Positions 540 through 40,571 of a DNA stretch of 64,000 bases are shown here, piece by piece (position 1 is the first letter of the stretch; each line of letters opens with the position of its first letter). The DNA is from Candidatus Omnitrophota bacterium (GTDB taxonomy: Bacteria; Omnitrophota; Gorgyraeia; Gygaellales; Gygaellaceae). The stretch spans positions 264,124 through 328,123 of the forward strand of contig JAGYNB010000001.1 of NCBI GenBank assembly GCA_018400015.1, given 5' to 3'. Made by a program: the position numbers and the translations under genes. A model generated the notes under the pieces. It saw only the letters and a program-made list of their open reading frames with translations. It did no database searches and was not told the origin of the DNA.

Positions 540-2108
540 ATGCTTGAACAGAACAAAAAAAGATACAGATTAAGAATAGTTATTCCTGCATATCCGGCGT
601 TTAATATTTATTCCTGCGTAGCTGATAAAACTACGGCTTTAGGGCCGGTTTGTGTAGCCAGTTCAGTAAATGAAATGTCGGGTTGGGATGTTGAGATAAT
701 TGATGAGAATAACCTGCGTATGTACGGTCCGCGTGCTCAAGATATTGGTGCAGATCATGAATTTTTACAGCAGTTAAGGCCTGCAGATGTGGTTGGTTTT
801 TATGGAGGCCTTACCAGTACAATTCCACGCCTTTACGATATAGCTAATTTTTATAAACAAAAAGGAGTAATTACGGTTGCCGGCGGCCAGCACTTTGCTC
901 AAGAAAATATTGCCGAGGCATTAAGTTCAGGGGTCGATTATGTGGTTATTGGAGAAGGTGAAGAGACGATTAAAGAGCTTCTTGTGGCGCTGCAGAATAA
1001 TAATGAGTTAGATTCGATTAAAGGCATTGCTTTTTTGGAGGATGGTAAGATAATTGAAACTTCTAAAAGAGAGCCTTTGATGGATTTTGACAATTTGCCA
1101 TTGCCTGATTTTTCTTTGGTGCGTTATGCAAAGATAAAGATGTATCCTGTGGAAAGAATCCGTGGCTGCGGCATGAATTGCGAATTTTGCACGGTAAAAG
1201 ATAAGCCGCGTTTTTCTTCTCCCGAGAGGCTTCTTGAGCGTATCAGTTATATTGTAGAAACTAAAGACGCCAGACATTTCTTTATAGTCGATGATTTATT
1301 TGGTCAACAAAGAGAAGAAACTATAAGATTTTGTAAGATGCTTAAGGATTATCAAGCGAATATCAACAGAAGGCTTGATTTCACGGTTCAGATAAGACTG
1401 GATAAGGCAAAAGATACCGAACTTTTGACTGTTATGCGCGAATCCGGCATAAATACAGTCGCCATTGGTTTCGAGTCCCCTATTGATGAAGAGCTAGAGG
1501 CAATGAATAAGCATCTTAAGGCGCAGGAAATGTTATCTCTTGTAAAGGTGTTTCATAGGTTTGGATTTTTGATCCATGGTATGTTTATTTTTTGCTATCC
1601 TATGAAGGAGGGGAATCATTTTGACATGTCCGTTGATGAAAGAGTAAAACGGATGAAGGATTTTGTAAAGAAAGCTAGAATTGATACTATACAGGTGATG
1701 TTGCCTGTCCCCCTTCCCGGAACCGAGTTAAGATCAAGGCTTGCGGCGCAGGGCCGCATATTTGCACTTAAAGATATAGGTTGGCAGTATTATGACGGTA
1801 ATTTCCCTCTTTTTATCCCCGATGAGCCTATGACTGCAGAGGATATGCAATGTTCCATAAGAAAGATCATGGGTAAGTTTTATCAGTTTAGGTATATGTT
1901 TATGGTGGTGGTTAGCATATTTTCTTTTCCGGCGATTGTGTTCTTTTTTAGCAATATTAAAAAAGGCTGGAGAATATGGTATCGTTTGTGGCGCAATACC
2001 TTGATTCGTTTTGGTGGTTGGATAACCATTAAGGGTTGGACAAGCGAATTTAAGAAAAATAAATTTTCTCAGCGTCTGCAACAGGCGCAAACACATCTAA
2101 AAGGTTAA
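540..2108 (+). CDS. B12-binding radical SAM protein (class B-like) with C-terminal transmembrane segment
   Basis: 522 aa; N-terminal Rossmann-like B12-binding region; RGCGMNCEFC CxxxCxxC motif; hydrophobic tail MFMVVVSIFSFPAIVFFF. Confidence 0.75.
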   Translation: MLEQNKKRYRLRIVIPAYPAFNIYSCVADKTTALGPVCVASSVNEMSGWDVEIIDENNLRMYGPRAQDIGADHEFLQQLRPADVVGFYGGLTSTIPRLYDIANFYKQKGVITVAGGQHFAQENIAEALSSGVDYVVIGEGEETIKELLVALQNNNELDSIKGIAFLEDGKIIETSKREPLMDFDNLPLPDFSLVRYAKIKMYPVERIRGCGMNCEFCTVKDKPRFSSPERLLERISYIVETKDARHFFIVDDLFGQQREETIRFCKMLKDYQANINRRLDFTVQIRLDKAKDTELLTVMRESGINTVAIGFESPIDEELEAMNKHLKAQEMLSLVKVFHRFGFLIHGMFIFCYPMKEGNHFDMSVDERVKRMKDFVKKARIDTIQVMLPVPLPGTELRSRLAAQGRIFALKDIGWQYYDGNFPLFIPDEPMTAEDMQCSIRKIMGKFYQFRYMFMVVVSIFSFPAIVFFFSNIKKGWRIWYRLWRNTLIRFGGWITIKGWTSEFKKNKFSQRLQQAQTHLKG

Positions 2109-2234
2109 TTCGTAATAAGCCGCGTTAATATTCAAGCTCAGTTTTTCCAATAAAGTTATGGTTAGCTTTTTGATTTTTCTTATTCAATATGATAGAATAC
2201 ATCCAAGTCAATCAAATAAATTATTATTAAGCCT

Positions 2235-2894
2235 GTGATGTCTTTAGATGCTATAAAAATAAGAAGACTAGAAAAGAAAGATATCCCTACTTTAAGAAAG
2301 TTGGCTGCTGATACTGCATATTTTGGCAGTGCCTGCGAGAATTTTTTTCCTGACAGAGAGTTTTTGTCGGTTTTAATCATGGATTATTATCTATTTTTTG
2401 AACCTGAGCATACTTGGGTGGCAGATGACAATGGAGAGGCTGTTGGCTATCTTTCTGCAGGGTTTGATGAATCTTCATATGCAAAGTATATGTTAAGATA
2501 CATGCCGAAATATTTTTTAAGATTTTTAATAAAAGGCGGCCTTTTTGATAAAAGGACAATAAAATTAATCTGGTATAATCTGTTGGTTGCGATCAATAAA
2601 CAGAATCAGCTAAAAAAAATTGACTATAGTAAATACCCAGTACATATCCACCAGAATATGAAACAGGGATATCGAGGTAAAGGTATCGGTAGCGGTTTGG
2701 TAAAGGCTTTTTTAGAATTTGTAGATAATAAAAAGTTTGGTGTTCATTTTCGCGCATTACGAGAGGTCGATAATTTTGCCTTTTTCGAAAGGTACGGTTT
2801 TAGAAAAATAGATTATAAAAGGGTTCCTATTTGGGAGAAGTGGCTTAATAGGAGCCCGCTTTATTTTATGGAATATGTAAGAGAAAGCGCATGA
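2235..2894 (+). CDS. GNAT-family N-acetyltransferase
   Basis: 219 aa; acetyl-CoA binding-like HIHQNMKQGYRGKGIGSGLVKAFLEF motif; stop overlaps next gene start (ATGA). Confidence 0.55.
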   Translation: MMSLDAIKIRRLEKKDIPTLRKLAADTAYFGSACENFFPDREFLSVLIMDYYLFFEPEHTWVADDNGEAVGYLSAGFDESSYAKYMLRYMPKYFLRFLIKGGLFDKRTIKLIWYNLLVAINKQNQLKKIDYSKYPVHIHQNMKQGYRGKGIGSGLVKAFLEFVDNKKFGVHFRALREVDNFAFFERYGFRKIDYKRVPIWEKWLNRSPLYFMEYVRESA

Positions 2895-3541
2895 TAGACA
2901 AAGTTATTAGTAAAGAATCCCTCCAGACAGGAATAAAGCGTATTTCACTTACCTTTGATGATGGCCCGGATAGGCTTTATACGCCCAAGATTCTAGATAT
3001 CTTAAGAGATTTTAATATAAAAGCAACTTTTTTCGTTGTGGGTAAAAATGCCCAGAATAACCCTGATATAATCACTCGTATCAACAAAGAAGGCCATGAT
3101 ATCGGTAATCATACATTTAGGCATCCGGTAAGCCCGCTTTTACTGAGGAGGAAGAACTTCATTAGGGAAGAGATTCTAAAAACTAACCGTATATTAAACA
3201 AGATCTTAGGCAAGATCCCGCTTTTTTTCCGTCCGCCTCTTGCAAGGTGGGATGCCTCAAGCAAGGATTTAATTTCTCAGGCAAGAAAGTTTGGCCACGT
3301 GAGCGTAGGTTGGTCGTGTTCTTCTGTTGATTGGATAGGCAGCCGCAAGATAATAGCAAATAAAATACTTAAGAATCCCAAAAAAGACGGCGATATTATA
3401 CTTTTGCATGACGGTGCGGAGAAAACATTCATCAAAAAAAGAAGCGCAACGGTAGAGATGCTTCCTGCGATTATCAAAGATTTACAAGAAAAATCTTTCC
3501 AGATGCTGTCATTAACCAAGTTGTTGTCTAATTTTCATTGA
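2891..3541 (+). CDS. Polysaccharide deacetylase (CE4 / NodB homology domain)
   Basis: 216 aa; LTFDDGPD...ATFFVVG...GHDIGNHTFRHP are the canonical NodB motifs. Confidence 0.8.
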   Translation: MIDKVISKESLQTGIKRISLTFDDGPDRLYTPKILDILRDFNIKATFFVVGKNAQNNPDIITRINKEGHDIGNHTFRHPVSPLLLRRKNFIREEILKTNRILNKILGKIPLFFRPPLARWDASSKDLISQARKFGHVSVGWSCSSVDWIGSRKIIANKILKNPKKDGDIILLHDGAEKTFIKKRSATVEMLPAIIKDLQEKSFQMLSLTKLLSNFH

Positions 3542-3628: not shown

Positions 3629-5374
3629 ATGAAAAATAAGCCAATCAATAAAGGAATAGAAAATCTTCGAAAATCCGGTAGTAATGTTTATAAAAAAGGC
3701 GCGCAGATGTTGCCGTGTGTGTCTTTGATGATGGCAGAAGGAGTTTTGGACTCTGTTAAAGATTTAAAGAAGCCTTTTGTGACTATTGTCAATTCCTACA
3801 CTACGCATATACCCGGTCACGCCCATTTGGATAAGATCGGAGAAGTCGTAAAAAAACAGCTTGAAGGTATGGGTGTTAATGTTTGGTATGCTAATATTGG
3901 CGGTGCAATTTGTGACGGTATTGCCATGGGACATTTTGGGATGAAGTATTCGCTAGCTTCCCGCGAGCTTATTACTGACCAGATCGAAACGATTATCGCA
4001 GCGCATCCTTGCGATGCCTGGATTGGGATCGGCAATTGCGACAAAATCGTTCCGGGGATGTATAATGCCATGGTCAGGCTTAATATTCCGTCTATTTACG
4101 TAAGCGGCGGACCGATGCTTGCTGGTAAAAATAATACTGATTTAATATCTGTTTTTGAAGGTGTGGGAAAATACAGTGTAGGTAAACTTTCTAAGAAGTC
4201 ATTGGAAGAATTAACAGAAGTTGCCTGTCCAGGTTACGGTAGTTGTTCAGGGATGTTTACGGCTAATTCGATGAATTGTTTGGGTGAAGTATTAGGTTTT
4301 GCCTTATCCGGTAACGGCACAATTCCGGCAACAATCCGTGTGAAAGATAAAACCAGACAGTTTACGATTAACCCCCAAAGGATAAGCCTTGCGAAAAAAG
4401 CAGCCAGAACTTTGGTAGATTTAATGAAGAAAAATATTAGACCTCTAGATATTTTAACCAAAGACTCAATTGATAATGCTTTTGTTCTTGATATGGCTAT
4501 GGGTGGTTCTACCAACACAGTGCTGCATATCTTGGCTTTAGCGCATGAGGCAGGAATAGATTATGATTTAAACCGGATTAGTTATATTGCTAAAAATACG
4601 CCAAACGTAATAAAGATTGCTCCTTCAAGGCCAGAGGTTCATTTAGAACATGTTCACAAAATAGGCGGAATGGGAGCAATATTAAAATCAGTTGTTAAAT
4701 CTAAGAAAACGCCCTTGAAACTTAACGCAAAGACAGTTTACGGTAGTTTAAAGAATTATGTTTTAGGATCTCCAGAACCAGATGGCAATATTTTACGCAG
4801 TGTTGATAATGCTTTTTCCAAACAAGGCGGTTTGGCAATTCTTTTTGGCAATATTGCCAAAAAGGGTGCGGTGGTAAAAACCAGCGGTGTGGAAGCTGAC
4901 ATGATGCGTTTTACAGGACCAGCTAAGATATATAATTCTCAGGAAGAAGCATTAGAGGGTATTTTAAAAGGAGAAGTCAAAGACGGTGATGTGGTCATAA
5001 TTCGTTATGAAGGTCCAAAAGGCGGACCTGGTATGCAGGAAATGCTTTCTCCTACAGCGGCAATTAAAGGTGCAGGGATAAAGGCGGCGCTCATAACCGA
5101 CGGCAGATTTTCCGGAGGTACGCGCGGGTTATGCATAGGGCATGTTTCACCTGAAGCCGCATCCGGCGGCGAGATAGGTTTGTTAAAAAACAAAGATATA
5201 ATTGAAATCGATGTTGAGAAAAAATCATTAAACGCCAAGGTTTCTAGCCAAGAGTTTAAAAGAAGGGCCAAAGGTAAAAAACCCTTTGTCTGTAAGGTGG
5301 AGGGCGGTTGGCTTCGCAGGTATTCATATTTTGTCACTAGCGCAGACACTGGCGCAGTATTAAGCAATCCTTAA
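3629..5374 (+). CDS. ilvD: Dihydroxy-acid dehydratase (IlvD/EDD family)
   Basis: 581 aa; CDKIVPGM and SGGPM motifs; the C-terminal GG-rich region is typical of IlvD/EDD dehydratases. No other ilv genes nearby. Confidence 0.7.
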
Positions 5375-5385
5375 ATAGAATATTT

Positions 5386-7212: not shown

Positions 7213-7222
7213 GCAAGCTTCA

Positions 7223-10803: not shown

Positions 10804-11265
10804 ATGCGGTTTGGAAGAAGAGGTTTTTGTAAAGCATGGCAGGGTCAGATTAAAGATGCCGGGTATCGTTTAACTATACCCAGACAGGTTATTTTGGATG
10901 TGCTAGCAAATAACACCGGGCATCTAAGCGCTGAAGATATTTATTTAAAAGTGCATAAGATTTATCCTCAGATAGGCCTAACAACTATTTATAGGACTTT
11001 GGATTTGTTGGTTAGTGTGGGGGTTGTTTTAAAAAGCGATTTTGGAGATGGACGTGCGCGTTTTGAAATAAAAATAAAAGATAAAACACACCATCATCAT
11101 TTAATATGTACTAAATGTTCACGAGTAATAGATTATACGGATTTTATTGATAAAGAACTAAAACTTTTAGCCGAGACTAAAAAAGGGTTAAGTGAGAAGT
11201 TTGATTTTGAAATTACAGGCCATTTGATTCAATTTTACGGAGTATGTAAAGACTGCAGGTCTTAA
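10804..11265 (+). CDS. Fur-family metalloregulator (Fur/Zur/PerR)
   Basis: 153 aa; winged-helix N-terminus; HHHHLICTKC and CKDC metal-binding motifs. Confidence 0.8.
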   Translation: MRFGRRGFCKAWQGQIKDAGYRLTIPRQVILDVLANNTGHLSAEDIYLKVHKIYPQIGLTTIYRTLDLLVSVGVVLKSDFGDGRARFEIKIKDKTHHHHLICTKCSRVIDYTDFIDKELKLLAETKKGLSEKFDFEITGHLIQFYGVCKDCRS

Positions 11266-11281
11266 AACAAAGGAGGGTATT

Positions 11282-11650
11282 ATGCCTAGAGGAGACGGAA
11301 CAGGTCCTATGGGACAGGGTTCAATGACAGGAAGAGGTTTAGGCTATTGTGCTGGTTTTAATGCACCAGGATATGCCAATTCAGGTTTTGGCAGAGGATT
11401 TGGTATGGGTGCAGGTCGCGGTATGGGAAGAGGCAGGCGCAACTGGTTTTACCAGACAGGGCTTCCTGGATGGGTAAGAGCGGGTTATGGTATGAGCGCT
11501 TACGGCAATCCTTATATGTCTGCCAACCAAGCTTATGCACCTTCAAAGAAGGACCAGCTTGATTATTTAAATAATGAAGCTGAAAGTTTAAAGGCAAGGT
11601 TAAAGGATATAGATTCTCAGATCAATAGTCTAGATAAGCAAGAAGAATAG
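11282..11650 (+). CDS. DUF5320-like glycine-rich / coiled-coil protein
   Basis: 122 aa; Gly-rich GRGxGMG repeats then a C-terminal coiled coil. This architecture commonly precedes NifB/NifX-like genes in anaerobes. Confidence 0.55.
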   Translation: MPRGDGTGPMGQGSMTGRGLGYCAGFNAPGYANSGFGRGFGMGAGRGMGRGRRNWFYQTGLPGWVRAGYGMSAYGNPYMSANQAYAPSKKDQLDYLNNEAESLKARLKDIDSQINSLDKQEE

Positions 11651-11670
11651 GTAAACTAAAAGGAGATAAT

Positions 11671-12060
11671 ATGCGGTTTGCAATATCTACTGACGCAGGT
11701 GAGGTGTCTGCACATTTTGGCAGGTGCCCGTCTTTTACAATCGTTGATATTGAAGAAGGGATAGTAAAAAGTAGGACTATAGTGGCTAATCCAGGACATC
11801 ATCCAGGACATATTCCTAAATTTCTGCATGATAAGGGTGTAAATTGCGTTATTGCCGGCGGAATGGGTATGAATGCAACTAATTTATTCAATCAGTTTGA
11901 TATAAAAACGGTTGTGGGCGCGGTTGGTTCTATTGATGAGGTGGTTGAAGCCATACTTAAAGGTAATTTAACCGCTGGTGAAAGTACATGCAAACCTGGA
12001 CAGGGCAAAGGATATGGTTTGGATAAGACTGTCTGCGATCATGAAGACGGTCATGACTAA
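11671..12060 (+). CDS. NifB/NifX-like 'dinitrogenase FeMo-cofactor biosynthesis' domain protein
   Basis: 129 aa; AxHFGRCPxFTIVD...VIAGGMGMNA motif of the PF02579-type fold. Confidence 0.7.
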   Translation: MRFAISTDAGEVSAHFGRCPSFTIVDIEEGIVKSRTIVANPGHHPGHIPKFLHDKGVNCVIAGGMGMNATNLFNQFDIKTVVGAVGSIDEVVEAILKGNLTAGESTCKPGQGKGYGLDKTVCDHEDGHD

Positions 12061-12074
12061 CAGAAGGAGAGATA

Positions 12075-12440
12075 ATGAAAGTTTGTGTTAGTGCTCAAGG
12101 CGATAATTTAGATTCAAGCGTTGATCCGCGTTTTGGCCGTTGCCAGTATTTTGTTTTTGTTGATACGGATACTTTGGAATTTGAAGCTGTTAATAATCCC
12201 AACATTACCGGTATGGGCGGAGTGGGCATACAGTCAGCCCAGTTTATTGTCTCTAAAGGAGCAGAAGCTGTTCTTACGGGCAATGTCGGGCCGAACGCTT
12301 TCACTACATTACAGGCAGCTAATTTAAAAATCATTACTGGTGTAGCGGGCTCGGTAAAAGAGGCAGTGGATAATTATAAAAACGGAAAATACAATTCTAC
12401 AAACGGTCCCAGCGTAGATTCTAAATTCGGGATGTCTTAA
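12075..12440 (+). CDS. NifB/NifX-like 'dinitrogenase FeMo-cofactor biosynthesis' domain protein (paralog)
   Basis: 121 aa; DPRFGRCQYFVFVD...VLTGNVGPNA, same fold as the upstream gene. Confidence 0.7.
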   Translation: MKVCVSAQGDNLDSSVDPRFGRCQYFVFVDTDTLEFEAVNNPNITGMGGVGIQSAQFIVSKGAEAVLTGNVGPNAFTTLQAANLKIITGVAGSVKEAVDNYKNGKYNSTNGPSVDSKFGMS

Positions 12441-12451
12441 ATAATGCTATT

Positions 12452-14163: not shown

Positions 14164-14168
14164 AAATA

Positions 14169-14960: not shown

Positions 14961-14963
14961 TTT

Positions 14964-30346: not shown

Positions 30347-33300
30347 GCTGTTAGTAAAAGGTATTAATAGCGAAAAGCATGCCTTTGCAGGTCCTAAAAT
30401 AGTACAGATTGATCTTACGGGTAAATGTAATAATAGTTGTATAGGCTGCTGGGTGCACTCTCCTTATATAAAAAACCCACCTAGAGACAAGAATGCAGTG
30501 CTTTCATTTGAAAGAATATCGAGATTAATAGATAATTTGGCACAGTTGGGTACGCGTGAGATTTTTTTATCAGGGGCAGGTGAACCTTTTTTGCATCCTG
30601 AAGTTTTCAGGATTATCGAGGCAATAAAAGCAAAAGGTTTAAAACTTAATATAATTACCAATTTTAGTTTGATCAATAGAAGAAATGCAGAGAAGTTGGT
30701 TGATTTGAAAGTAGATATGATTACAGCAAGCATTTGGGGAGGTGATGAGGACACCTATATAAAAACTCACCCAGGTAAATCCGCAAATGATTTTGCGGCA
30801 ATCAGAAACAATATTAAAACACTGTCGCAAATAAAGAATAAAAATAATGTTTTTTTCCCTCATGTTAAGATTTTTAATGTTATTTGCAATTTGAATTGCA
30901 ACAATATACATAGTATGATCGATTTTGCTTTGGAGGCCGAGGCAGAATCTATTGAATTTCAAATCATGGATATCGTCGAAGGCTCTACTGATTTTTTAAG
31001 GTTGTCATCAGATGATATCAATATTATTAAACAGCAATTTTGTACACTTTTTGAACGAAATGATCTGTTTTTTAGAGATATAAATGAATATAATGCAGAA
31101 AATAGCAGATCTCAAGAATTATTTGAATTTTCAGGAAGGTTTATCAAGATACCCGTTGGTTTTCGTTTAGAAGAGAAGATTGAATGTACCGAAGGTAAGA
31201 ATATTTGTTTGCGTTCCTTAATCTGTCCCTCCGGATTTACCAGTTTGCCTTCTGAATCCAATCCGTTAGTCAAAGAGGACTGCAATAAGATTATTTTTAA
31301 GCGCAGCAAAGAGGAGTGTATGAACTGCAGGCATTTTAAAACAGATTGTCCTGTAAATAGAGATTTCGATATTCCCTTTAAGTATCTTCAGGTTCTTGGA
31401 CATTATCCGTTTATGAGAAGAATTAATTCTGCGGATATATATAAAAAAGAATATGAGCGTGATTTTATTGATAAATTACCTTGTTACATCGGATGGATAT
31501 ATTCTCGAGTCATATCTACGGGAGACGTTATTCCATGTTGCAAAGCGATTAATAAACCGTTGGGTAATATCAATAAAGAATATTTCAAAGAGATATGGGA
31601 CTCACAAGATTACCAAGAATTCCGGTTTAATGCCAAAAATCTGTCAAAAGCTGATGGTTATTTTAATGAAATTGATTGTTTTAAATCATGTGATAACGTG
31701 GGAATGAATATTCAGATTATTGATAATTTATCCAAAATTAATCTGGAAAAAGATCATGGTTGTAAGCTCGAAGCTGTTTATAATGGAGCAAAGTTGTATA
31801 AAAAACTGCCTCAAGCAGAGCAACAAATAATAGTAATGGCAAATTCATTCCATAACGGAAATCTTAATAAATACACCGACGAATTCGGAAAAGGCGTAGT
31901 AATCGATGGCGGATTTAAATATGGTTATGCTGAGTATGAGGTAGACTTTACTAATTCTGGGATTTATGAATTATGGTTATGTTATGCCAGCAATGAGAAA
32001 AGAGGGTTAAAGATATATATTGATGGACAGTTAGTTAAGGATAAAGCAGCTGATTATATAACCGGTGGTTGGGATAAAAGTCATTTAATTTGGAGTAAAG
32101 AACTAAAGATTTCTAACATAAAAGGCAAGCATTATATAAAGTTTGCATCGAATAATGTTTTTCCCCATATACATAGTTTTGTTTTTTTATCGAATGTAAA
32201 AAGAGAAGATTCTGATTTGATTGAATGCGGTTGTGAACAGATTTATGATGGAAAATTTCCATTCGGTGTTTTACGTGAAAAAATTAAGCGAAATGGAATA
32301 ATAATTGCATTCCGGTCTTTAGCTAAGTATATCTTGTCAGGAAAGTTTTTGAATAGCTATCTTGATATTTTGGGCATTTTTAATGGCAGTTATGCATTCA
32401 AAGGCCCTTTTCATGTGCAAATTGATCTTACTTATCGGTGTAACAATGATTGTATTGGTTGTTGGTGTAACTCACCGCTTCTTGGAGAAAAACGGATAAC
32501 AAACGAGAAGAAAAACGAAACGTTGCCTTATCCGTTAGTGATTGATTTGTTGGATGAGATTTCAGCAATGGGTGTTAAGGAAATTTATTTTTCAGGCGGA
32601 GGAGAGCCTTTTATGCATCCGAATATATTCGAAATCTTAGAATATGCAAAATCAAAGAAGCTATTATGTTATATTAATACCAATTTTACTCTTTTGGACA
32701 AAGAGAAAATTAACAAACTTATTGAGTTGGGCATAGATCATTTGACTGTGAGTACTTGGGCGGCAACCGCACAGACTTATGCAAAAACGCATCCTAACAA
32801 GAACGAAGATACTTTTAATACTATTCGCGAGAACTTAAAGTTTCTTAATAGTGTTAAAAAAACAAAACCTCATATAAAACTTTATAATGTTATATTTAAT
32901 TATAATTATCATGAGTTAAAAGAGATGATCTTATTTGCAAAGGATACGGGTTGTGAATCGGTAGAGTTTACTGTTCTTGATACGATTCCCGGGAAAACGG
33001 ATAGACTGCTTTTAAATAAGGAGCAGATCAAGGAACTCGAAGAATCTGTGATCCAAATTAAGGCGGGTATAGACAGCAAAGGTTTATATGAGGGAGTGTT
33101 GTTGTTTCGGTTTGAATCGTTTTTAAGAAGGATTTCCTCGCGTGAGGATTTATCTAATGCAACGTACGATAGGAATATTATCGATAAAATTCCCTGTTAT
33201 ATCGGATGGTGTTTTTCACGCATTATGCCAAATGGCGATGTTAATGCATGTTTAAAGGCGCATCGCATACCCAGCGGTAATTTATTTCAGCAGAACTTCA

Positions 33301-34661
33301 GGGAGATTTGGAATGGCGATAAACAGATATTTTTTCGAAAAAAAACTTTAGTGAAAGAGAAGAAGGGAGAGTTTTTTACTCTTATTGGCAATGATCTGGA
33401 CATTAAAGAAGCAGGTTGTTATAAAAGTTGTGATGATATCGGAAGAAATATATATATGCATAATAGAATAATGTCTTTAACCCTTGTTGAGAGATTTTTT
33501 CTTAAGATTTTGTCAAAGATATTCAAAAAACCGCCAGTGTCCAAAGAGAACAAAATTCTTAAAAATAACGATTTGATAAGAAAAGGTATCTTAACGAAAC
33601 GTAAGGCATTTGTCGGGCCAGAACAGGTGGTGGTTGATATTACTAATCGTTGTAATTTAAGATGTGTTGCCTGCTGGTTGTATTCTCCTGTATTAAAGAA
33701 TCCTCCGAAAAGCGATATTTTATCTGCAGAGTTATCTTTCGATCGTTTATCCGGTTTAATTAAAGAGCTTGCGGCTATGGGTACAAAAAGAATAAGATTT
33801 ACCGGAGGAGGAGAGCCTTTTTTGTATTCTCGTATTTTTGATGCTATAGCCTTAGCCAAACAAAGAAAATTGATTTGTTCTGTGACAACAAATTTTACGT
33901 TATTAAATAAGAAAAAGATCGATGAATTGATTAAGCTTGGTATTGATGAACTTACTGTAAGTCTTTGGGCTTCAAACGAGGATAATTACAGGATAATGCA
34001 TCCGGGCTGTGCTCAGGATATGTTTAAAATGATAGACGATAATTTAGATATGCTTATACAAAATAAAAAAAAGAAACCTTTTGTTACTGCGGCCAATGTG
34101 ATATCCAATCTTAACTATCGATATCTTGAGCAGATGTTCGATTTTGCTGTAAAAAAAGGGTTGGATTCGGTCTACTTTACATTGCTTGATCCTTTAGAAG
34201 GTACAGATGAACTACTTTTGGATTCAGGGCAAAAGAAAGATGTTTTAAAACAGTGTGAGAATATAAAAAGAAAAATTAAACTGTTTTCATCAGAAAAAAG
34301 AATTGAATTGCATTATTTTGATGGTTTTATATCGAGGCTTACTCAATCTCAATCAAGAGACGGTAATTATGATAAACAAAGGGTCCAAGGCGTACCTTGT
34401 TATGCAGGATGGTTGTTTGCGAGGATAATGGCGGATGGGTCTGTGTCTCCTTGCTGTCGGGCAGTAAAGAAAACAATGGGCAACATCAATAAAAATTGTT
34501 TTAAGGATATTTGGTTCTCGCGAATATATAATGAGTTTAGATCCAAAGCACTGCTTTTAGATAAAGCCGATATTTATTTTAAAGATATAGGATGTTTTAA
34601 AACATGCGATAATCTAATGCATAATGAACATATGCATAATATTCTAACATATGGAAAGTAA
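30339..34661 (+). CDS. Giant tri-modular radical SAM/SPASM(twitch)-domain protein with internal beta-sandwich (CBM-like) insert
   Basis: 1440 aa; three tandem modules, each with a CxxxCxxC motif (CNNSCIGC, CNNDCIGC, CNLRCVAC) and an SPASM-like tail (PCYIGW/PCYAGW...GDVxPCC/NAC...GN(I/L)...EIW). Residues ~470-625 (nt ~31746-32214) form an extra Trp/Tyr-rich putative carbohydrate-binding insert. Confidence 0.75.
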   Translation: MDKLLVKGINSEKHAFAGPKIVQIDLTGKCNNSCIGCWVHSPYIKNPPRDKNAVLSFERISRLIDNLAQLGTREIFLSGAGEPFLHPEVFRIIEAIKAKGLKLNIITNFSLINRRNAEKLVDLKVDMITASIWGGDEDTYIKTHPGKSANDFAAIRNNIKTLSQIKNKNNVFFPHVKIFNVICNLNCNNIHSMIDFALEAEAESIEFQIMDIVEGSTDFLRLSSDDINIIKQQFCTLFERNDLFFRDINEYNAENSRSQELFEFSGRFIKIPVGFRLEEKIECTEGKNICLRSLICPSGFTSLPSESNPLVKEDCNKIIFKRSKEECMNCRHFKTDCPVNRDFDIPFKYLQVLGHYPFMRRINSADIYKKEYERDFIDKLPCYIGWIYSRVISTGDVIPCCKAINKPLGNINKEYFKEIWDSQDYQEFRFNAKNLSKADGYFNEIDCFKSCDNVGMNIQIIDNLSKINLEKDHGCKLEAVYNGAKLYKKLPQAEQQIIVMANSFHNGNLNKYTDEFGKGVVIDGGFKYGYAEYEVDFTNSGIYELWLCYASNEKRGLKIYIDGQLVKDKAADYITGGWDKSHLIWSKELKISNIKGKHYIKFASNNVFPHIHSFVFLSNVKREDSDLIECGCEQIYDGKFPFGVLREKIKRNGIIIAFRSLAKYILSGKFLNSYLDILGIFNGSYAFKGPFHVQIDLTYRCNNDCIGCWCNSPLLGEKRITNEKKNETLPYPLVIDLLDEISAMGVKEIYFSGGGEPFMHPNIFEILEYAKSKKLLCYINTNFTLLDKEKINKLIELGIDHLTVSTWAATAQTYAKTHPNKNEDTFNTIRENLKFLNSVKKTKPHIKLYNVIFNYNYHELKEMILFAKDTGCESVEFTVLDTIPGKTDRLLLNKEQIKELEESVIQIKAGIDSKGLYEGVLLFRFESFLRRISSREDLSNATYDRNIIDKIPCYIGWCFSRIMPNGDVNACLKAHRIPSGNLFQQNFREIWNGDKQIFFRKKTLVKEKKGEFFTLIGNDLDIKEAGCYKSCDDIGRNIYMHNRIMSLTLVERFFLKILSKIFKKPPVSKENKILKNNDLIRKGILTKRKAFVGPEQVVVDITNRCNLRCVACWLYSPVLKNPPKSDILSAELSFDRLSGLIKELAAMGTKRIRFTGGGEPFLYSRIFDAIALAKQRKLICSVTTNFTLLNKKKIDELIKLGIDELTVSLWASNEDNYRIMHPGCAQDMFKMIDDNLDMLIQNKKKKPFVTAANVISNLNYRYLEQMFDFAVKKGLDSVYFTLLDPLEGTDELLLDSGQKKDVLKQCENIKRKIKLFSSEKRIELHYFDGFISRLTQSQSRDGNYDKQRVQGVPCYAGWLFARIMADGSVSPCCRAVKKTMGNINKNCFKDIWFSRIYNEFRSKALLLDKADIYFKDIGCFKTCDNLMHNEHMHNILTYGK

Positions 34662-36042
34662 TAATTTAATTAGTTATTTGGATGTATTTTTCCAAAAAGA
34701 TTGCTTTGAAAGAATAAATTCAATTATTGATCCGGATAGCCTTCAATTTAAGCCTGCCAAAGAAGTTTACGAAGATTTAAGATATTATGTGTCTAGATTT
34801 AAGACTAACAAATTCGAATTTAACAGTTATTGCAATTTAAATACGGGTTTTCTATCAAAATTGTGCGATTTGATTATTAACGCTGATTTCTGTATCAAGT
34901 GGTCGAGCCCCGCAGTTTTCAAAAAGGATTTTAACGAAGATAATATTCTACAATTAAAGAAATCAGGATGTTATAGACTTGTTTTTGATTTGTTCTCTGC
35001 ATCGGATAATTTTCTTGAAAGAATGAAAATACCTTTTGACAGCCGAGTGGTTATAAATATATTGCAAAAGTGTAAAGAGCATGGGATTGATGTTGGAATT
35101 AGGTTGTTGTTTTATCATCCGCAGTCAGATATAACTGATTTTGATAACACATTGGAGTTTATTCGTTTAAATTCAGAATATATCAAGGAGATATCCTGCG
35201 TTGACTTATGTATTAGCTCTTTTTTGCGACAGCCTAGATGCAGGAATTTTTATTCCTGCAAAGGCGATAGTAATAATAATTATTCTTCTTTGGCTAAGCG
35301 CATCATGAAACCTTACCGCATAATCAAAGATTTAGGTATTCCGGCGGTTGTTTTTTCTCCATCTGAACAGCAGTTTGATTTAATCAATAGTTTCTTTACT
35401 CGCCACGTAATTTGTAACAGAAATTTATCTTTAGTTTTTGATGGCGGTTGTTGCCATATTTTCTGGAAGAATATGCGCTTAACTAAAGGTTTCGGAATAT
35501 ATACATCTATTTTTGCTTTAGGTAATTGGCAAGATTCTCGGCAGGTCGATTGGAAATTTGTCTGTAAAGACAATTCTAGCATAGTTGTTGTTGGCAATTG
35601 GAAATTCTTGCCTATAGTACAGCAATGGCGTATAGAGATGTTTGCTGAAAATAAGATTTCTTTTTGTGTAACTATGGAAATCAAGGATGGTATCATTATA
35701 GATGGTGAACAGCAGTTTAATGTCATGTTAGACTCAGTATATAAAAGCTGGTTTTTCTCTAAAGATCTTTCCAATATTTTTCCAGAATTTTTTAACAAAG
35801 AGTGGGTTAATTTATTTGAGAAAACAATTGAACACGCTGATTGTATTGGCGTTGAGGCAAATTCTGAAAAATTCCCTGATTTGAGATTGCGCTGCGATTT
35901 TTTCCATGGAAGAAAGCTGGCCGTATTGAACACGCCATTAGAGTTTAGTTCCAGAAAGCTTAAGGCATATTTTTTCGACATGAATAAAAAACCACCAGGG
36001 GAAATAGTTTATTTTAAAGGAGAGATTTTAATTGGCAAATAA
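34651..36042 (+). CDS. Degenerate radical-SAM-like (no CxxxCxxC) protein fused to Wzt-CTD-like domain
   Basis: 463 aa; residues ~90-190 align to the distal half of the B12-rSAM barrel of ORF 36032 (LKKSGCYRLVFDLFSASDNFLERM... vs KAGCTRLCYGIESASDDVLKRM...) but the Cys triad is absent. Residues ~255-380 carry NWQDSRQVDWKFV...WKFLPIVQQWRI...YKSWF. Confidence 0.5.
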   Translation: MESNNLISYLDVFFQKDCFERINSIIDPDSLQFKPAKEVYEDLRYYVSRFKTNKFEFNSYCNLNTGFLSKLCDLIINADFCIKWSSPAVFKKDFNEDNILQLKKSGCYRLVFDLFSASDNFLERMKIPFDSRVVINILQKCKEHGIDVGIRLLFYHPQSDITDFDNTLEFIRLNSEYIKEISCVDLCISSFLRQPRCRNFYSCKGDSNNNYSSLAKRIMKPYRIIKDLGIPAVVFSPSEQQFDLINSFFTRHVICNRNLSLVFDGGCCHIFWKNMRLTKGFGIYTSIFALGNWQDSRQVDWKFVCKDNSSIVVVGNWKFLPIVQQWRIEMFAENKISFCVTMEIKDGIIIDGEQQFNVMLDSVYKSWFFSKDLSNIFPEFFNKEWVNLFEKTIEHADCIGVEANSEKFPDLRLRCDFFHGRKLAVLNTPLEFSSRKLKAYFFDMNKKPPGEIVYFKGEILIGK

Positions 36043-38002
36043 TGTTTATGATGCTGCTTTAGTTATGATGCCTCCGTGGGAGCCTAAGATAGCGCCTTTA
36101 GGTCTTGCTTATATTGCTGAACATTTAAAAAGCAATGGGTTGAAAGTTAAGATTATTGATTTTAATCTGCGTCTTTATAAGCAGTCTGATGAGAGAAAGC
36201 GCATTTTTTGGAATATTTCCAACATTAACTTTATGCCTCTTCCGGAAATTACGGCCAGAATGTCAAGTTTATTTAAAAAAGAAATTGACGGTTTAACCGA
36301 TGAGCTTATTTCTTGTAACGCCGGTGTAATAGGTTTTTCTGTCAATATTACCAGTATTGGTCTTGCCGGCAAGATAAGTTCGATCATAAAGCAAAAGGAC
36401 AGCAGTAAAATAGTTGTTTTTGGGGGAACAGGTTGTTTTTGGCAAAATGATAGAGATAGTATTGCTAGAGAAGATTTGGCATCCATAGATGCTTTTGTGA
36501 TAGGGGAAGGAGAGGAAGCTTTCACAAAAATAGTCGAGAGTCGGGGAGAGTTAATTAACCAGCTTTCTTGTGTTCTCAGCAAAGAGCAGGGTTTTCAGAA
36601 TAGGGTAATGCCCTGTCATATTTCGGATATTAATTCTTTAAGTTTTCCTAAATTTGCTGATTTTGATTTGAATTCGTATTTAGATAAGCATGTACCGATG
36701 CTGATCAGCAGAGGATGTATAGGAGGATGTGTTTATTGCATTGACCGTTTAATGTGCGGTAAATATAGAGCAAGGGACGCAGAGAGTATTATCGAAGAAA
36801 TGCAATATCATATAAATTATAATAAAATCAACGATTTTGCTTTTAATGATTTGATATGCAACGGTGATCTCAGGCAGCTGGAGAAGCTATGTGATTTAAT
36901 TATCGCTTCCGGACTTAAAGTTGTATGGAATAGCTATGCAATGATACGTAAAGATATGACGAAGGATTTATTTGATAAGATGCATAAGGCGGGCTGCACA
37001 AGGTTATGTTATGGGATTGAGAGCGCTTCCGACGATGTATTAAAAAGAATGAATAAATTTTATCTTTCAGATGATGCCAAAAGGATAGTTCAATTAACTC
37101 ATGATGCGGGGATAAACACTGCTTTTAATGTTATAGTTGGTTTTCCCGGCGAAACAATGGAAGATTTTGAAGAAACAATTAGTTTTATTGTCGATAATCA
37201 CGCATCGATAAATGAAATAACTAATATATCAAGTTTTGCAGTAATGCAGAATTCAGTTTTAGGCAAAGATACAGAAAAGTTCGGTATAATTATTCCCGAA
37301 AATAAAGATCTAAACTATTTTGTTGATAATAGAGGGTTGGATTTAAACGGGAGAATTAAACGAGTTTATAAAACTGTATTTACATCCGTAATGCTGGGTA
37401 TTAAAAATGTTATTGTAAATGTACCAAGTTATAATATCAGTTCTGATAATAATTTGGTTATGATGATTAATTTACCTCCGGCACGTGTTGATATGCCGTG
37501 TTTAGGTCTGTTGAAGATGCACAATAAACTAAATATAGCGAATGTAAAGAAAATTATAAGGGATTCGAATATTGAGTTATTTCGGATGGTTAACGAGGAT
37601 GAAAAAAGATTATGGCTAACGGAAAATTATTTTTCTTGGTTAAAGCCAGAATTTCTATTGAAAGAATACAGCCATTTGAGTGATGTTTTTTTTCAATATA
37701 TAAACGATATTGTTTCTTCTGGCGCGGGGAGAATCTACTTTTTCATAAATAAGGAGAATTGGATGTTATCTTGTAAGATATCTAACTATCTTAAGAAGAT
37801 TAGGCCAGATCTATTACTTTTTTATAACCAGGATTCTTCCGAAGAATTTATTGCGATGGACGATATTGATTTTTGCAAGATTAAACCTTTTGTTGAAAGC
37901 TTTGAAAGAAAAGAAATCAAAGATAAACAACCATTAAAATATGATTTATTAGATTTAAGTTTATACGAAGATTTATGTTTACCTATAGACCTGATTAAAT
38001 AA
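36032..38002 (+). CDS. B12-binding radical SAM protein
   Basis: 656 aa; N-terminal B12-binding-like Rossmann (ALVMMPPWEPKIAPLGLAYI); SRGCIGGCVYC cluster; GIESASDDVL, IVGFPGET core motifs. Confidence 0.75.
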   Translation: MANNVYDAALVMMPPWEPKIAPLGLAYIAEHLKSNGLKVKIIDFNLRLYKQSDERKRIFWNISNINFMPLPEITARMSSLFKKEIDGLTDELISCNAGVIGFSVNITSIGLAGKISSIIKQKDSSKIVVFGGTGCFWQNDRDSIAREDLASIDAFVIGEGEEAFTKIVESRGELINQLSCVLSKEQGFQNRVMPCHISDINSLSFPKFADFDLNSYLDKHVPMLISRGCIGGCVYCIDRLMCGKYRARDAESIIEEMQYHINYNKINDFAFNDLICNGDLRQLEKLCDLIIASGLKVVWNSYAMIRKDMTKDLFDKMHKAGCTRLCYGIESASDDVLKRMNKFYLSDDAKRIVQLTHDAGINTAFNVIVGFPGETMEDFEETISFIVDNHASINEITNISSFAVMQNSVLGKDTEKFGIIIPENKDLNYFVDNRGLDLNGRIKRVYKTVFTSVMLGIKNVIVNVPSYNISSDNNLVMMINLPPARVDMPCLGLLKMHNKLNIANVKKIIRDSNIELFRMVNEDEKRLWLTENYFSWLKPEFLLKEYSHLSDVFFQYINDIVSSGAGRIYFFINKENWMLSCKISNYLKKIRPDLLLFYNQDSSEEFIAMDDIDFCKIKPFVESFERKEIKDKQPLKYDLLDLSLYEDLCLPIDLIK

Positions 38003-38021
38003 GCAAAAAAATAATAAAATT

Positions 38022-40571
38022 ATGCAGAGTACGTTTCCTGAGAATTTATCGATTCAAACTACATCCATTTGCAATGCTCATTGTATTTTTTGTCCTTATG
38101 AGCAGATTAAAGATAAATTTCCCGCAAAGGTTATGGATAATAGTTTGTTTAGAAAGATTATAGATGAATCTAGCTCTTATCGTCAAATCAAGAGAATAAT
38201 TCTTTATATGAATAATGAACCTTTGACTGATAAGTTTATTATTGAGCGGATTAATTATGCAAAGGAGAAAATTCCTTGGTCCAGCGTGCATTTATTGACT
38301 AACGGTAGTCTTCTGAATGATGCATTGATAAGAAATCTGCTAGATTCTCGGCTTGACTGGATTGGTTTTAGTTTACATGGGGTAAGGAAGCAGACTTTTG
38401 AAAAGACAATGGGCATAGACTATGATAAAACATTTAAAAATGTAAATAATTTTATAAACTCGGCGAAAGAAGTAAAAAATATAAAAGAATACGTAATGGT
38501 TACTTTTTTGCGCCATATATATTTAAGTGAATCTGAAAAAGAAGAAGCCTTTGCTTATTGGAAAAGCAAAGGTATAGAGAGAATTAGTTATTTTGATGGT
38601 CCTGTCAGCCGTGCCGGAAACGTAAAGAATATGCCAACGGTAAGAAATCATTCGGTTTATGGCTGTAATTCAATTTGGGCAAATGAGATGATGCATATAG
38701 TTGAGGATGGAAATGTTGTTGCCTGTTGCATGGATTGGAATAGAGAAATAAACTTAGGCAATCTTAATGCTGATTCGATTGCTCAGGTGTGGAATTCACA
38801 AAGTTACAACGAATTTAGAGAAAGAAGAGACGGTTTATTGTCTTCAGAAGAAGAATTTCTGTGTAAAAGGTGCGAAATGGCAAAGACCGGTGAAACAGAT
38901 ACTAATATCCGGACAAGAAATAGCGGCAATTTGGATATTGGATTAGTAACGCTTCCTCCTTGGGGGGTTGAGAATCCTCCTATTGGGCTGGGCTATTTAG
39001 ATTCGCACCTGAGGAACAAGGGTTTTAAGACAAAGATATTTGATTTTAATATTTTATTTCATAATAGTGTTGAAGATTCTTTAAAGATGCTTTGGCATGT
39101 GGAAAATAAAAACTATTGGAGCAATAAAGAGACATTTTCCTTGCTGGTTAATATTTTCAAGAAACAGATAGAGGAAACGGTTGCTATATTGTTGTCGTCT
39201 AATTGTAAGTTTTTTGGATTTTCTGTAGTTGATCCCAAGGAAAGAATTACAATAGAAGTTATAAAAAGAATGAAGAAGAAAGCACCTCAAATAAAAGTAA
39301 TTCTAGGCGGGCCCGCCTGTTCCAGCGATGTGCAAAGAGAATTCTTTTTGCATAATGCCCCTGGGGTTATAGATTATTTTGTTGTCGGAGAAGGAGAAGA
39401 AACTCTTGAGAAAATTATCGACAACGAGATTAAATCAATAAATCCCCCTAGGGAAAATGGTGTTGCATTTTATGAATCCAAGAAATGGCATTACATTCCA
39501 AGGGATCCGATAAAGCCCTTGGATAAAATCGGTTTCCCTAAGTATGCCGGTATCAATCTCAAGGAGTATAACGGAGGCCGTTCCCTTCTTGTAGAATGGT
39601 CCAGGGGGTGTATAGGAAATTGTAGTTTTTGTAAGAATTATCACTTGGTTAAGGGCTATCGCTTCAGAAGCCCTAAAAACATAGTAGAAGAATTAAGTTA
39701 TTTTGTAAACAATCATAATATACGCGAATTTACAGTATGCGACAGTTTAATGAATGGGAATTTTAAACAGCTCAATGACGTTTGTGATGAAATTATTAAA
39801 AAAGGAATCAATATTAGATGGTCTGGTCAAATTGCATCAAGAAAAGAAATGACTGTTGATTTATTCACTAAGATGAAAAGGGCAGGCTGTTTAAAGATGC
39901 AGATTGGTGTTGAGAGCGGTTCGGATTTAGTTTTAAAGAAAATGAATAAAATTTATACTTCGAAAATCTCCCGAAATACAGTAAGAAATGCAAATAAGGC
40001 GGGTATTGAAACGGAAATATTTATAATCATAGGTTTTCCCGGAGAATCGCATAAAGAATTTATGAAAACCTATGATTTTATAAAACATAACGCCGCCTAT
40101 ATTGATACAGTTAAATCAATTAATACGCTTCATTTAATCGCAGGCACAGAGGTTTATGAACAAAAAGAGAAGTTTGGCATAAAAGAACTTCCCAGTGAAA
40201 ACTGGCATTATCTTTGGGAGACAATAGATGGCAATAATTATTCCGTAAGGAAAGAAAGAGCACAAAAAATCTTGGATTTATGTTGGCGATTAGGTATTAA
40301 GGTTATGGAAACGAACATAAAAGAAGGCAAAGAGGCGTCAGCGACAGTTTATGAAAAAATGGCAATTCCACAAGCAGTAGAAAAATTAAAGTTTGAAATA
40401 AATAAATTACAGGGTTTGCCTCAGCAGAATAAGGTAAAAACAAAGATGAGAAGAAGTTGTCTGAAATATATTCTTCTTGTTCCTATAGTTTTCTATACTT
40501 TATTTTACATAATTTATTTCCAGTTATTTAGGTTGATAAAAGGCAGGTTTATATTAGGGGGAAGCGAATAA
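38022..40571 (+). CDS. Dual radical SAM fusion: N-terminal SPASM/twitch-type rSAM + C-terminal B12-binding rSAM, C-terminal TM anchor
   Basis: 849 aa; first domain CNAHCIFC with VACCMDWN...LGNL...VWNS SPASM-like tail; second domain B12-binding + SRGCIGNCSFC; hydrophobic C-terminus ILLVPIVFYTLFYIIYFQLF. Confidence 0.75.
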   Translation: MQSTFPENLSIQTTSICNAHCIFCPYEQIKDKFPAKVMDNSLFRKIIDESSSYRQIKRIILYMNNEPLTDKFIIERINYAKEKIPWSSVHLLTNGSLLNDALIRNLLDSRLDWIGFSLHGVRKQTFEKTMGIDYDKTFKNVNNFINSAKEVKNIKEYVMVTFLRHIYLSESEKEEAFAYWKSKGIERISYFDGPVSRAGNVKNMPTVRNHSVYGCNSIWANEMMHIVEDGNVVACCMDWNREINLGNLNADSIAQVWNSQSYNEFRERRDGLLSSEEEFLCKRCEMAKTGETDTNIRTRNSGNLDIGLVTLPPWGVENPPIGLGYLDSHLRNKGFKTKIFDFNILFHNSVEDSLKMLWHVENKNYWSNKETFSLLVNIFKKQIEETVAILLSSNCKFFGFSVVDPKERITIEVIKRMKKKAPQIKVILGGPACSSDVQREFFLHNAPGVIDYFVVGEGEETLEKIIDNEIKSINPPRENGVAFYESKKWHYIPRDPIKPLDKIGFPKYAGINLKEYNGGRSLLVEWSRGCIGNCSFCKNYHLVKGYRFRSPKNIVEELSYFVNNHNIREFTVCDSLMNGNFKQLNDVCDEIIKKGINIRWSGQIASRKEMTVDLFTKMKRAGCLKMQIGVESGSDLVLKKMNKIYTSKISRNTVRNANKAGIETEIFIIIGFPGESHKEFMKTYDFIKHNAAYIDTVKSINTLHLIAGTEVYEQKEKFGIKELPSENWHYLWETIDGNNYSVRKERAQKILDLCWRLGIKVMETNIKEGKEASATVYEKMAIPQAVEKLKFEINKLQGLPQQNKVKTKMRRSCLKYILLVPIVFYTLFYIIYFQLFRLIKGRFILGGSE

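Follow-up and report, generated by a model that had tools for sequence, protein, structure and literature searches.

A conserved Omnitrophota operon with a block of radical SAM genes that probably tailors an exported surface glycan

The 64-kb stretch of DNA analyzed here (herein the window; 64,000 nucleotides of contig JAGYNB010000001.1, assembly GCA_018400015.1, from a Candidatus Omnitrophota bacterium) has a G+C content of 35% and carries nearly all of its genes on the + strand. All plausible-gene open reading frames (ORFs) of at least 100 residues were scanned with Pfam, using PF04055 (gathering score 29.5 bits) for the radical S-adenosylmethionine (rSAM) domain and PF02310 (gathering score 32.1 bits) for the B12-binding domain. 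Together with a scan for the CX3CX2C cysteine motif, this gives 11 rSAM cores in 8 proteins, with an intact motif in 10; five neighboring genes (27977-40571), which we call R1 to R5, hold 8 of these 11 cores. The density of rSAM domains probably stems from one conserved operon (~22691-47010) for a surface glycan exported by an ATP-binding cassette (ABC) transporter. The features of the operon are as follows; HMM denotes hidden Markov model.

22691-23851, + strand: Wzy_C-family membrane protein of the O-antigen ligase/polymerase type (Pfam Wzy_C, 5.5e-12)
23844-25148, + strand: flavin adenine dinucleotide (FAD)-dependent enzyme with an amine-oxidase fold (Pfam Amino_oxidase, 1.2e-19)
25145-25927, + strand: Wzm, ABC-2 type permease of the glycan exporter (Pfam ABC2_membrane, 1.2e-16)
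25924-27984, + strand: Wzt/TagH-like ABC ATPase (residues 1-250; ABC_tran, 1.8e-22) with two C-terminal GalM-like copies
26674-27300, + strand: GalM-like domain, Wzt copy 1 (iterated HMM)
27358-27975, + strand: GalM-like domain, Wzt copy 2, terminal (iterated HMM)
27977-30346, + strand: R1, with N-terminal hydrophobic helix, GalM-like domain, B12-binding domain, and rSAM core (Pfam, motif scan, iterated HMM)
28139-28759, + strand: GalM-like domain of R1 (iterated HMM)
30339-34661, + strand: R2, 1440 residues, three rSAM-twitch/SPASM modules (three rSAM and three SPASM matches in Pfam) and a module resembling carbohydrate-binding module (CBM) families CBM35/CBM6
31749-32318, + strand: CBM35/CBM6-like carbohydrate-binding module of R2 (predicted β-jelly-roll fold)
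34651-36042, + strand: R3, cluster-less C-terminal half of a class-B-like rSAM barrel (PF04055, 24.8 bits) with a GalM-like domain
35410-36033, + strand: GalM-like domain of R3 (iterated HMM)
36032-38002, + strand: R4, B12-binding domain and rSAM core, CX3CX2C at residue 229 (Pfam, motif scan)
38022-40571, + strand: R5, BtrN-like twitch rSAM (38022-38921) fused to a B12-rSAM (38922-40571; Pfam, motif scan)
40677-47010, + strand: three family 4 (GT4) and two family 2 (GT2) glycosyltransferases and a WecA/MraY-family primer (Pfam)

The operon runs from Wzy_C through the FAD enzyme, Wzm, Wzt, and the rSAM block to the five glycosyltransferases (40677-45989) and the WecA-like primer, a WecA/MraY-family polyprenyl-phosphate sugar-phosphate transferase (Glycos_transf_4; 46018-47010). 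It is tightly packed: from 23844 to 36042 the genes overlap by 4 to 11 nucleotides at their start and stop codons, and onward to 47010 no gap exceeds 105 nucleotides. The presence of ABC2_membrane and ABC_tran proteins beside five glycosyltransferases and a Glycos_transf_4 enzyme identifies the locus as an ABC-transporter-dependent glycan pathway. The Wzy_C gene that opens the operon has homologs in three of the related loci described below (L017, L032, and L040). The FAD enzyme stands immediately before Wzm in L010, L012, L025, and L038 and upstream of it in L016; its NCBIfam matches, to a PRK07208-type model (189 bits) and to UDP-GALP_mutase (1.7e-9), both fall under the cut-off, and its sequence has weak similarity to UDP-galactopyranose mutase. 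A ManC-type gene directly upstream of the operon likely supplies GDP-mannose. The G+C content is 0.32-0.355 across the operon region (22000-48000), ~0.35-0.40 in the upstream part of the window, and 0.345-0.38 downstream, where it overlaps the operon range.

In Wzm/Wzt pathways such as that of Escherichia coli O9a, the C-terminal domain of Wzt recognizes the substrate. In the Wzt protein of the window (25924) two GalM-like domains occupy the place of this usual C-terminal domain. ABC_tran is the sole Pfam domain found in the protein at E ≤ 0.01; Wzt_C gave no match at this threshold with the whole protein, nor at E ≤ 1 when the terminal copy was scanned alone. The NCBIfam scores of the protein (TagH, 183 bits; galactan Wzt/RfbE, 155 bits) lie under the respective equivalog cut-offs.

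The block holds eight rSAM-type modules, seven of them with an intact cysteine triad. R1 combines an N-terminal helix (residues 18-38) and a GalM-like domain with a B12-binding rSAM enzyme whose CX3CX2C motif begins at residue 511. Its best NCBIfam model is HpnJ (226 bits; cut-off 577), and AprD4 reaches 97 bits (cut-off 500), both below equivalog level; searched against PDB sequences, the R1 core matches AprD4 best (1.9e-21), then TsrM, TokK, and CysS. R4 is 33% identical to the C-terminal half of R5 over 462 residues and matches PhpK-type models and C-methyltransferase-type models for peptides that are ribosomally synthesized and modified after translation (RiPPs) at ~110 bits, again under the cut-offs. 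R5 ends in a transmembrane helix (residues 812-836). Its C-terminal half finds an uncharacterized rSAM protein, OxsB, and AprD4 among PDB sequences, and BtrN is the sole match of its N-terminal half (6e-14); this alignment extends over the rSAM core as well as the C-terminal region, with the four auxiliary-cluster cysteine positions paired.

The three rSAM modules of R2 span ~30339-31748, 32319-33533, and 33534-34661, with the CBM-like module between the first and the second. SPASM (PF13186) matches are found in all three and in the N-terminal half of R5; because each of these modules has only four to five conserved auxiliary cysteines, fewer than the 7-Cys full SPASM motif, they look twitch-like. 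All three R2 modules look active from their sequences, since all three cysteine triads and the four to five auxiliary cysteines per module are kept in at least 95% of 60 homologs. Module 1 has an additional conserved four-Cys site (C296, C327, C330, and C337; 31224-31349) within an insert absent from modules 2 and 3, which could be a further metal or cluster site. The PDB sequence matches of module 2 are PqqE, BtrN (9e-5), and DesII. Approximately 75 homologs cover at least 99% of R2 at 43-59% identity, and those with names are all from Omnitrophota.

R3 differs from the other members of the block in that its PF04055 match, which does not reach the gathering score, is confined to profile positions 83-166, and in that it lacks a cysteine triad; it cannot be placed in the rSAM superfamily by score. 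The partial barrel is 34% identical to residues 248-399 of R4. An ortholog in L009 is 32% identical over the full length, with the same truncated barrel, the same C-terminal domain, and likewise no triad.

A comparison of the window with itself by BLAST finds homology (E = 1e-17 to 3e-5) between the 430 residues at the C terminus of Wzt, the region at the N terminus of R1, and R3 in its C-terminal half. The shared unit is a domain of ~207 residues, of which an iterated HMM finds ~165 copies across the related loci and the window, the two Wzt copies with values of 3.6e-36 and 1.2e-50. It occurs as two to five tandem copies after the Wzt ATPase, at the N or C terminus of B12-rSAM proteins, as one to three copies before rSAM-SPASM modules, and as a stand-alone protein. 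For every copy in the window, the most similar copies are those that occupy the equivalent position in orthologs. Wzt copy 1 is closest to internal (nonterminal) copies of the multicopy Wzt proteins in L046, L002, and L010, and the best matches of Wzt copy 2 are the final Wzt copies of other loci. Copy 2 is also 27% identical to the R3 copy (E = 1e-17), which is itself closest to its own ortholog and then to the last Wzt copy.

The predicted structure of this domain has the β-supersandwich topology of aldose-1-epimerases, hence our term GalM-like. No Pfam match was obtained with single copies at E ≤ 1 or with 64 copies scanned separately, and the domain profile found no relative among PDB sequences. 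A profile of the four window copies retrieved nothing at E ≤ 1e-5 from a collection of 5.8 billion proteins, a database size for which the profile is too weak. In a library of 1.84 billion cluster representatives the domain is found in only 634 proteins at E ≤ 1e-3, mostly as two to nine copies. The 60 best matches of the domain include no Wzt chain. Trp, Gly, Pro, Gln, and Phe make up most of its conserved positions. Because neither an alignment of 12 copies nor one of 64 copies contains an invariant or near-invariant His or Glu, as an aldose 1-epimerase should, this pattern fits a binding module better than an epimerase. The R2 module likewise has no Pfam or PDB sequence match, and its predicted structure matches the β-jelly-roll fold of CBM35/CBM6.

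A scan of species-representative genomes gave 47 related loci, mostly from metagenome-assembled genomes of Omnitrophota: ~31 are named Omnitrophota, 8 are from bins labeled as uncultured Planctomycetia/Planctomycetota, and the rest include one bin of the Planctomycetes-Verrucomicrobia-Chlamydiae (PVC) group, one bacterium without classification, two bins of the Deltaproteobacteria type, and five of archaea. The order that recurs (tblastn) is FAD enzyme, Wzm, Wzt, domain proteins, R1, R2, R4/R5, GT4, GT4, GT2. Conservation was counted in the 34 loci of at least 12 kb, with the R1 core and the first GT4 scored at ≥40% identity. The R1 core is present in 31 of the 34 and the GalM-like domain in 29; the first GT4 after the rSAM block and an R4/R5-type B12-rSAM are each found in 20. 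Wzm together with the Wzt ATPase domain is seen in 12 of the 34, a figure bounded by the amount of upstream flank. The three modules of R2 are separate genes in many loci. L038, L025, and L026 are denser than the window, with 14 to 16 CX3CX2C motifs per ~25 kb; L038 (4700-25579), like L025 and L026, has single-module rSAM(-SPASM) genes of ~330-360 codons in long tandem arrays, and nine of ten further ORFs scanned in L038 are of this type. The modules of R2 are 39-40% identical to each other and 54-71% identical to their best orthologs in other genomes, and the B12-rSAM proteins are 23-33% identical within the window and 50-61% identical to their best orthologs elsewhere. As paralogs in the window (23-40%) are thus less alike than orthologs (50-71%), the sequences indicate that the duplications and the fusion of R2 are old rather than a recent burst.

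The inventory of the window puts the block in proportion. The 10 cores that pass both the PF04055 and the triad test lie in the genes starting at 540, 14169, 21271, 27977, 30339 (three cores), 36032, and 38022 (two cores), and Pfam finds no further rSAM protein among the remaining ORFs of at least 100 residues. A six-frame search returns 13 CX3CX2C strings, the other three of which (18155, 47388, and 54942) are out of frame with their host genes. An earlier note on this DNA located rSAM genes at positions that all prove to encode the domain; its total of 13 cores in nine proteins, which disagrees with its own list, becomes 11 in 8. Where it counted five B12-binding class B enzymes, we find four proteins with a B12-binding domain N-terminal to the rSAM core (540, 52.5 bits; 27977, 32.4 bits, borderline; 36032, 38.1 bits; C-terminal half of 38022, 47.0 bits), and the only possible fifth is 34651 (R3), the remnant of a class-B-like barrel. 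The note had called this gene decayed: the triad is missing and the barrel partial, but the intact ORF and the L009 ortholog of the same architecture rule out a decaying pseudogene. A density far above average was also claimed. For the window as a whole this is borne out (8 rSAM proteins in ~57 genes, binomial P = 2e-5 at a generous background of 2%, a rate taken from general knowledge rather than from this genome), but outside the five-gene block the remaining 3 in ~52 genes are unexceptional (P = 0.09).

The same note called such a density a hallmark of some uncultivated anaerobic lineages and took it to suggest a lineage-specific expansion of cobalamin-dependent chemistry. A source of this kind agrees with IlvD (3629-5374), which is 90% identical to that of Candidatus Gygaella obscura of the phylum Omnitrophota, and with the recurrence of rSAM-rich loci in that phylum; the remaining named IlvD matches are from Omnitrophota or the PVC group, except for one labeled just "bacterium". 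The association with the lineage is real, but the density is tied to one family of loci, with 8 of the 11 cores in one operon. The emphasis on cobalamin does not hold, as SPASM/twitch or other non-B12 types account for 6 of the 10 intact cores, the class expanded in related loci is the single-module rSAM-SPASM protein, and R1, which has a B12-binding domain, is closest to AprD4, an enzyme not known to use cobalamin. Recent duplication of the B12-rSAM paralogs, which the note had proposed to check by phylogeny, is ruled out by the identities given above. No gene for cobalamin synthesis or uptake lies within the 64-kb window; the Pfam "CbiA" matches (12452 and 13309) belong to P-loop ATPases of the MinD/ParA type that carry ferredoxin inserts. 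The best R2 homolog anywhere is 59% identical, compared with 90% for the IlvD relative. In the nearest relative known, this locus may be missing, not assembled, or hypervariable, which is common among loci for surface glycans.

What this analysis establishes is which domains are present and which folds they are predicted to adopt, how the genes are ordered and how far that order is conserved, and which solved structures are nearest. We favor the reading, to which we assign a probability of roughly 0.6, that the rSAM block tailors a lipid-linked glycan on the cytoplasmic side of the membrane and that this tailoring is coupled to export; in its favor, the genes form one operon with conserved synteny, the nearest solved relatives modify sugars, and R1 and R5 carry terminal hydrophobic helices. 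BtrN, AprD4, and DesII act on sugars or aminocyclitols. R1 and R5 would be held at the membrane by their terminal hydrophobic helices, and the enzymes would dock on the glycan through their fused modules, GalM-like in R1 and R3 and CBM35-like in R2. The 5′-deoxyadenosyl radical would then abstract hydrogens from sugar C-H bonds. By analogy, the BtrN-like twitch modules (the N-terminal half of R5 and the three modules of R2) might oxidize or epimerize secondary alcohols, the AprD4/HpnJ-like R1 might dehydrate or rearrange a sugar, and C-methylation might fall to the class-B modules, namely R4 and R5 in its C-terminal half. The two GalM-like domains of Wzt may recognize the glycan, since they are located where other Wzt proteins carry the glycan-recognition domain; if they read its modified state, export would be coupled to tailoring, and the Wzy_C protein could then ligate the exported chain. 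A broader version is more tentative and, in our estimate, falls somewhat short of even odds: that Omnitrophota make a previously unrecognized class of surface glycan, remodeled in the cytoplasm by rSAM arrays, and that the GalM-like handle shared with Wzt lets only the radical-modified polymer be exported.

Several observations weigh against glycan tailoring. The rSAM-SPASM enzymes are best known for peptide substrates. RlmN is the only rSAM protein of the window to attain an NCBIfam equivalog cut-off; no member of the block reaches that of a functionally defined family. Modification-gated export is suggested solely by the GalM-like domain being common to Wzt and the rSAM proteins. A family of 48-residue ORFs lies beside the rSAM array in five related loci. 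Pairs of SPASM/twitch and B12-rSAM enzymes (Hbs/Hgm) also modify membrane-spanning lipids (10.1101/2023.10.20.563219).

The last point leads to the likeliest of the alternatives, although an unlikely one: that the block tailors membrane lipids, either by bridging, cyclizing, or methylating lipid cores in the manner of Hbs, Grs, and Hgm or by acting on hopanoid side chains like HpnJ. Omnitrophota carry Hbs and Mss homologs for membrane-spanning lipids, and SPASM/twitch and B12-rSAM pairs make and methylate bridged tetraether lipids (10.1101/2023.10.20.563219). HpnJ is, at 226 bits, the best model of R1, a "lipid biosynthesis B12-binding/radical SAM" model matches all B12-rSAM proteins of the window at 69-109 bits and R3 at 26 bits, and an isoprenoid/carotenoid-type cluster lies at 57652-63414. 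All of these scores, however, are far under the family cut-offs; no scanned rSAM protein is a Tes homolog at the NCBIfam cut-off (best 19.8 bits against 450), Mss and Hbs not having been part of that test. The fused modules are predicted to be carbohydrate-binding folds rather than hydrophobic pockets, and the conserved neighbors are Wzm/Wzt and glycosyltransferases. Because the target of HpnJ is itself a sugar head group, tailoring the head group of a glycolipid would still count as chemistry on a glycan. Slightly less probable is that the window merely samples a genome rich in rSAM and B12-rSAM genes throughout. Three rSAM genes do remain among the ~52 outside the block, the phylum is of the anaerobic candidate type, and related loci are also rSAM-rich; but the 3 in 52 are not significant at the 2% background (P = 0.09), the 8 of 11 cores in five contiguous genes keep their order across more than 30 loci, and the rSAM-rich stretches of related loci are the same island and not scattered genes.

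We consider it very improbable that the block matures a RiPP or other peptide of the proteusin or sactipeptide type for export by the ABC transporter. SPASM domains are typical of peptide maturases, 38022 (R5) scores 151 bits with rSAM_ocin_1 and also matches ApyD and StsB (NCBIfam, all under cut-off), and the 48-residue ORF family accompanies the rSAM array in L016, L018, L026, L038, and L043. The window, however, holds no precursor candidate: the sole small ORF in the operon gaps (22372-22566) is excluded as a precursor by its Pfam assignment as a DUF2934 protein, and no small ORF family is common to most of the related loci. Pfam finds no PqqD-type RiPP recognition element (RRE) on the rSAM proteins, in which the cysteine triads begin as early as residue 30 (R2 module 1) and residue 17 (R5) and therefore leave no N-terminal space for one. 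The transporter is of the Wzm/Wzt ABC-2 type rather than a peptidase-ABC exporter, and the system incorporates five glycosyltransferases along with a WecA-like primer and two folds predicted to bind sugar. An equally improbable alternative is a small pseudo-oligosaccharide of the aminoglycoside type in place of a surface polymer. It would account for the origin of the nearest solved relatives (BtrN, AprD4, and DesII) in aminoglycoside or deoxysugar antibiotic pathways and for the presence of glycosyltransferases and an exporter, but not for a WecA-family enzyme that primes on polyprenyl phosphate, a Wzy_C ligase-type protein, and a Wzm/Wzt exporter; Pfam scans find no inosose synthase or aminotransferase in the window, and CBM-type modules usually bind polymers.

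The small ORFs of the related loci encode 47 to 50 residues with the pattern MAETNWQKF.KH.KNGG.FYA..RG.KY..WR...GIDWRKFSR, lie just 5′ of the rSAM array, and resemble residues 9-30 of R1. They may represent either an anchor helix that has become detached or a peptide in its own right. Their positions are:

L016, 14656-14808: 47-50-residue ORF
L018, 5256-5399: 47-50-residue ORF
L026, 14659-14799: 47-50-residue ORF
L038, 14634-14780: 47-50-residue ORF
L043, 14563-14709: 47-50-residue ORF

The other rSAM genes of the window and the genes directly upstream of the operon are:

540-2108, + strand: lone B12-rSAM with a C-terminal transmembrane helix (B12-binding, 52.5 bits, and rSAM)
14169-14960, + strand: small stand-alone rSAM (Pfam), unrelated to the operon
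19732-21132, + strand: ManC-type mannose-1-phosphate guanylyltransferase/mannose-6-phosphate isomerase (Pfam NTP_transferase, 1.6e-45; MannoseP_isomer, 2.6e-34)
21271-22293, + strand: RlmN, housekeeping rRNA/tRNA adenine C2 methyltransferase (TIGR00048, 377 bits; cut-off 290)
22372-22566, + strand: DUF2934 protein of 64 residues, in the one gap of notable size between RlmN and the glycan operon

The protein encoded at 540 lies outside the operon and is just 23-28% identical to R1, R4, and R5. It is followed by a GNAT protein (2235-2894, + strand) and a carbohydrate esterase family 4 (CE4) polysaccharide deacetylase (2891-3541, + strand), and 540-3541 may be a second sugar-modifying trio. In L007, a CE4 homolog (41% identity) is located downstream of the rSAM block, where the sequence available for that locus ends. 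The rSAM gene at 14169 sits in a tight cluster (10804-15854, + strand) of Fur, DUF5320, two NifX-like proteins, two MinD/ParA proteins with ferredoxin inserts, and an ARMT1-like phosphatase. RlmN, which also has the N-terminal domain RlmN_N (4.7e-14), is unrelated to the operon. Downstream of the operon, an oxidative-stress and iron-sulfur block (48487-54668, + strand) encodes an Rrf2 regulator, SufC, SufBD, an FNR-like reductase, desulfoferrodoxin, a rubrerythrin-VIT1 fusion, a PNPOx-like protein, a flavin mononucleotide (FMN) reductase, and rubrerythrin. Glutamine synthetase (55944-57497, − strand) carries an N-terminal HTH_17 (MerR/excisionase-type) DNA-binding domain, an unusual fusion. 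The isoprenoid/carotenoid-type cluster at 57652-63414 comprises an amine-oxidase-fold desaturase, IspH, squalene/phytoene synthase, a lycopene-cyclase domain protein (60846-61190), a TPR protein, and a polyprenyl synthase.

In the literature on Omnitrophota and on radical SAM enzymes and surface glycans, we found no description of this cluster, of fusions between rSAM enzymes and carbohydrate-binding modules, or of mutarotase-like domains on a Wzt protein. In a preprint from 2026, rSAM is listed with the "sugar metabolism" domains of giant proteins from Omnitrophota and is not analyzed further. If tailoring of an exported glycan is what the operon does, C-methylated, deoxygenated, epimerized, or oxidized sugars would be expected in the Omnitrophota envelope, and the GalM-like domain would join the small set of known Wzt cargo-recognition modes. 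Omnitrophota are a widespread uncultivated phylum of very small bacteria, possibly host-dependent. A few antibiotic pathways are known in which rSAM enzymes tailor sugars, and each of them uses one or two such enzymes; in the present case a polysaccharide export operon incorporates as many as a dozen or so, fused to predicted sugar-binding modules. For enzymologists this provides a defined candidate set of glycan-modifying rSAM enzymes, and for annotators a reason against labeling such loci as RiPP or ladderane clusters.

With ABC-dependent O-antigen pathways the operon shares an ABC-2 permease, an ATPase with a C-terminal extension, a primer, several glycosyltransferases, and a Wzy_C ligase-type protein, all in one operon. 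The only solved sequence relative of the N-terminal half of R5 is BtrN, the twitch rSAM 2-deoxy-scyllo-inosamine dehydrogenase of butirosin biosynthesis (PDB: 4M7T/4M7S). Identity to BtrN is low, and the BtrN-like half of R5 is fused to a B12-rSAM and a membrane helix; BtrN belongs to an aminoglycoside cluster, whereas the context of R5 is a polymer-export operon. The R1 core is nearest to AprD4, the C3′ diol-dehydratase rSAM of apramycin biosynthesis (PDB: 6FD2), and to HpnJ, the rSAM enzyme of the hopanoid cyclitol ether. Both of these act on sugar rings, and R1 adds an N-terminal helix and a GalM-like domain. AprD4 has a B12-binding domain but is not known to use cobalamin. The arrangement of a B12-binding domain followed by an rSAM core in the 540 protein, R1, R4, and the C-terminal half of R5 is that of the class B methyltransferases (TsrM, TokK, CysS, and GenK-type); the matches of the block to TsrM, TokK, CysS, and OxsB are distant and below equivalog level, and its use of cobalamin is a prediction. 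The GalM-like domain has 4-13% sequence identity to the galactose mutarotase superfamily and the R2 module 11-23% to CBM35/CBM6. Here both modules are part of cytoplasmic rSAM proteins rather than of secreted glycosidases. Taken against these systems, the cluster is of the ABC-transporter-dependent glycan type, with an unprecedented rSAM block for putative tailoring and a new family of candidate recognition domains.

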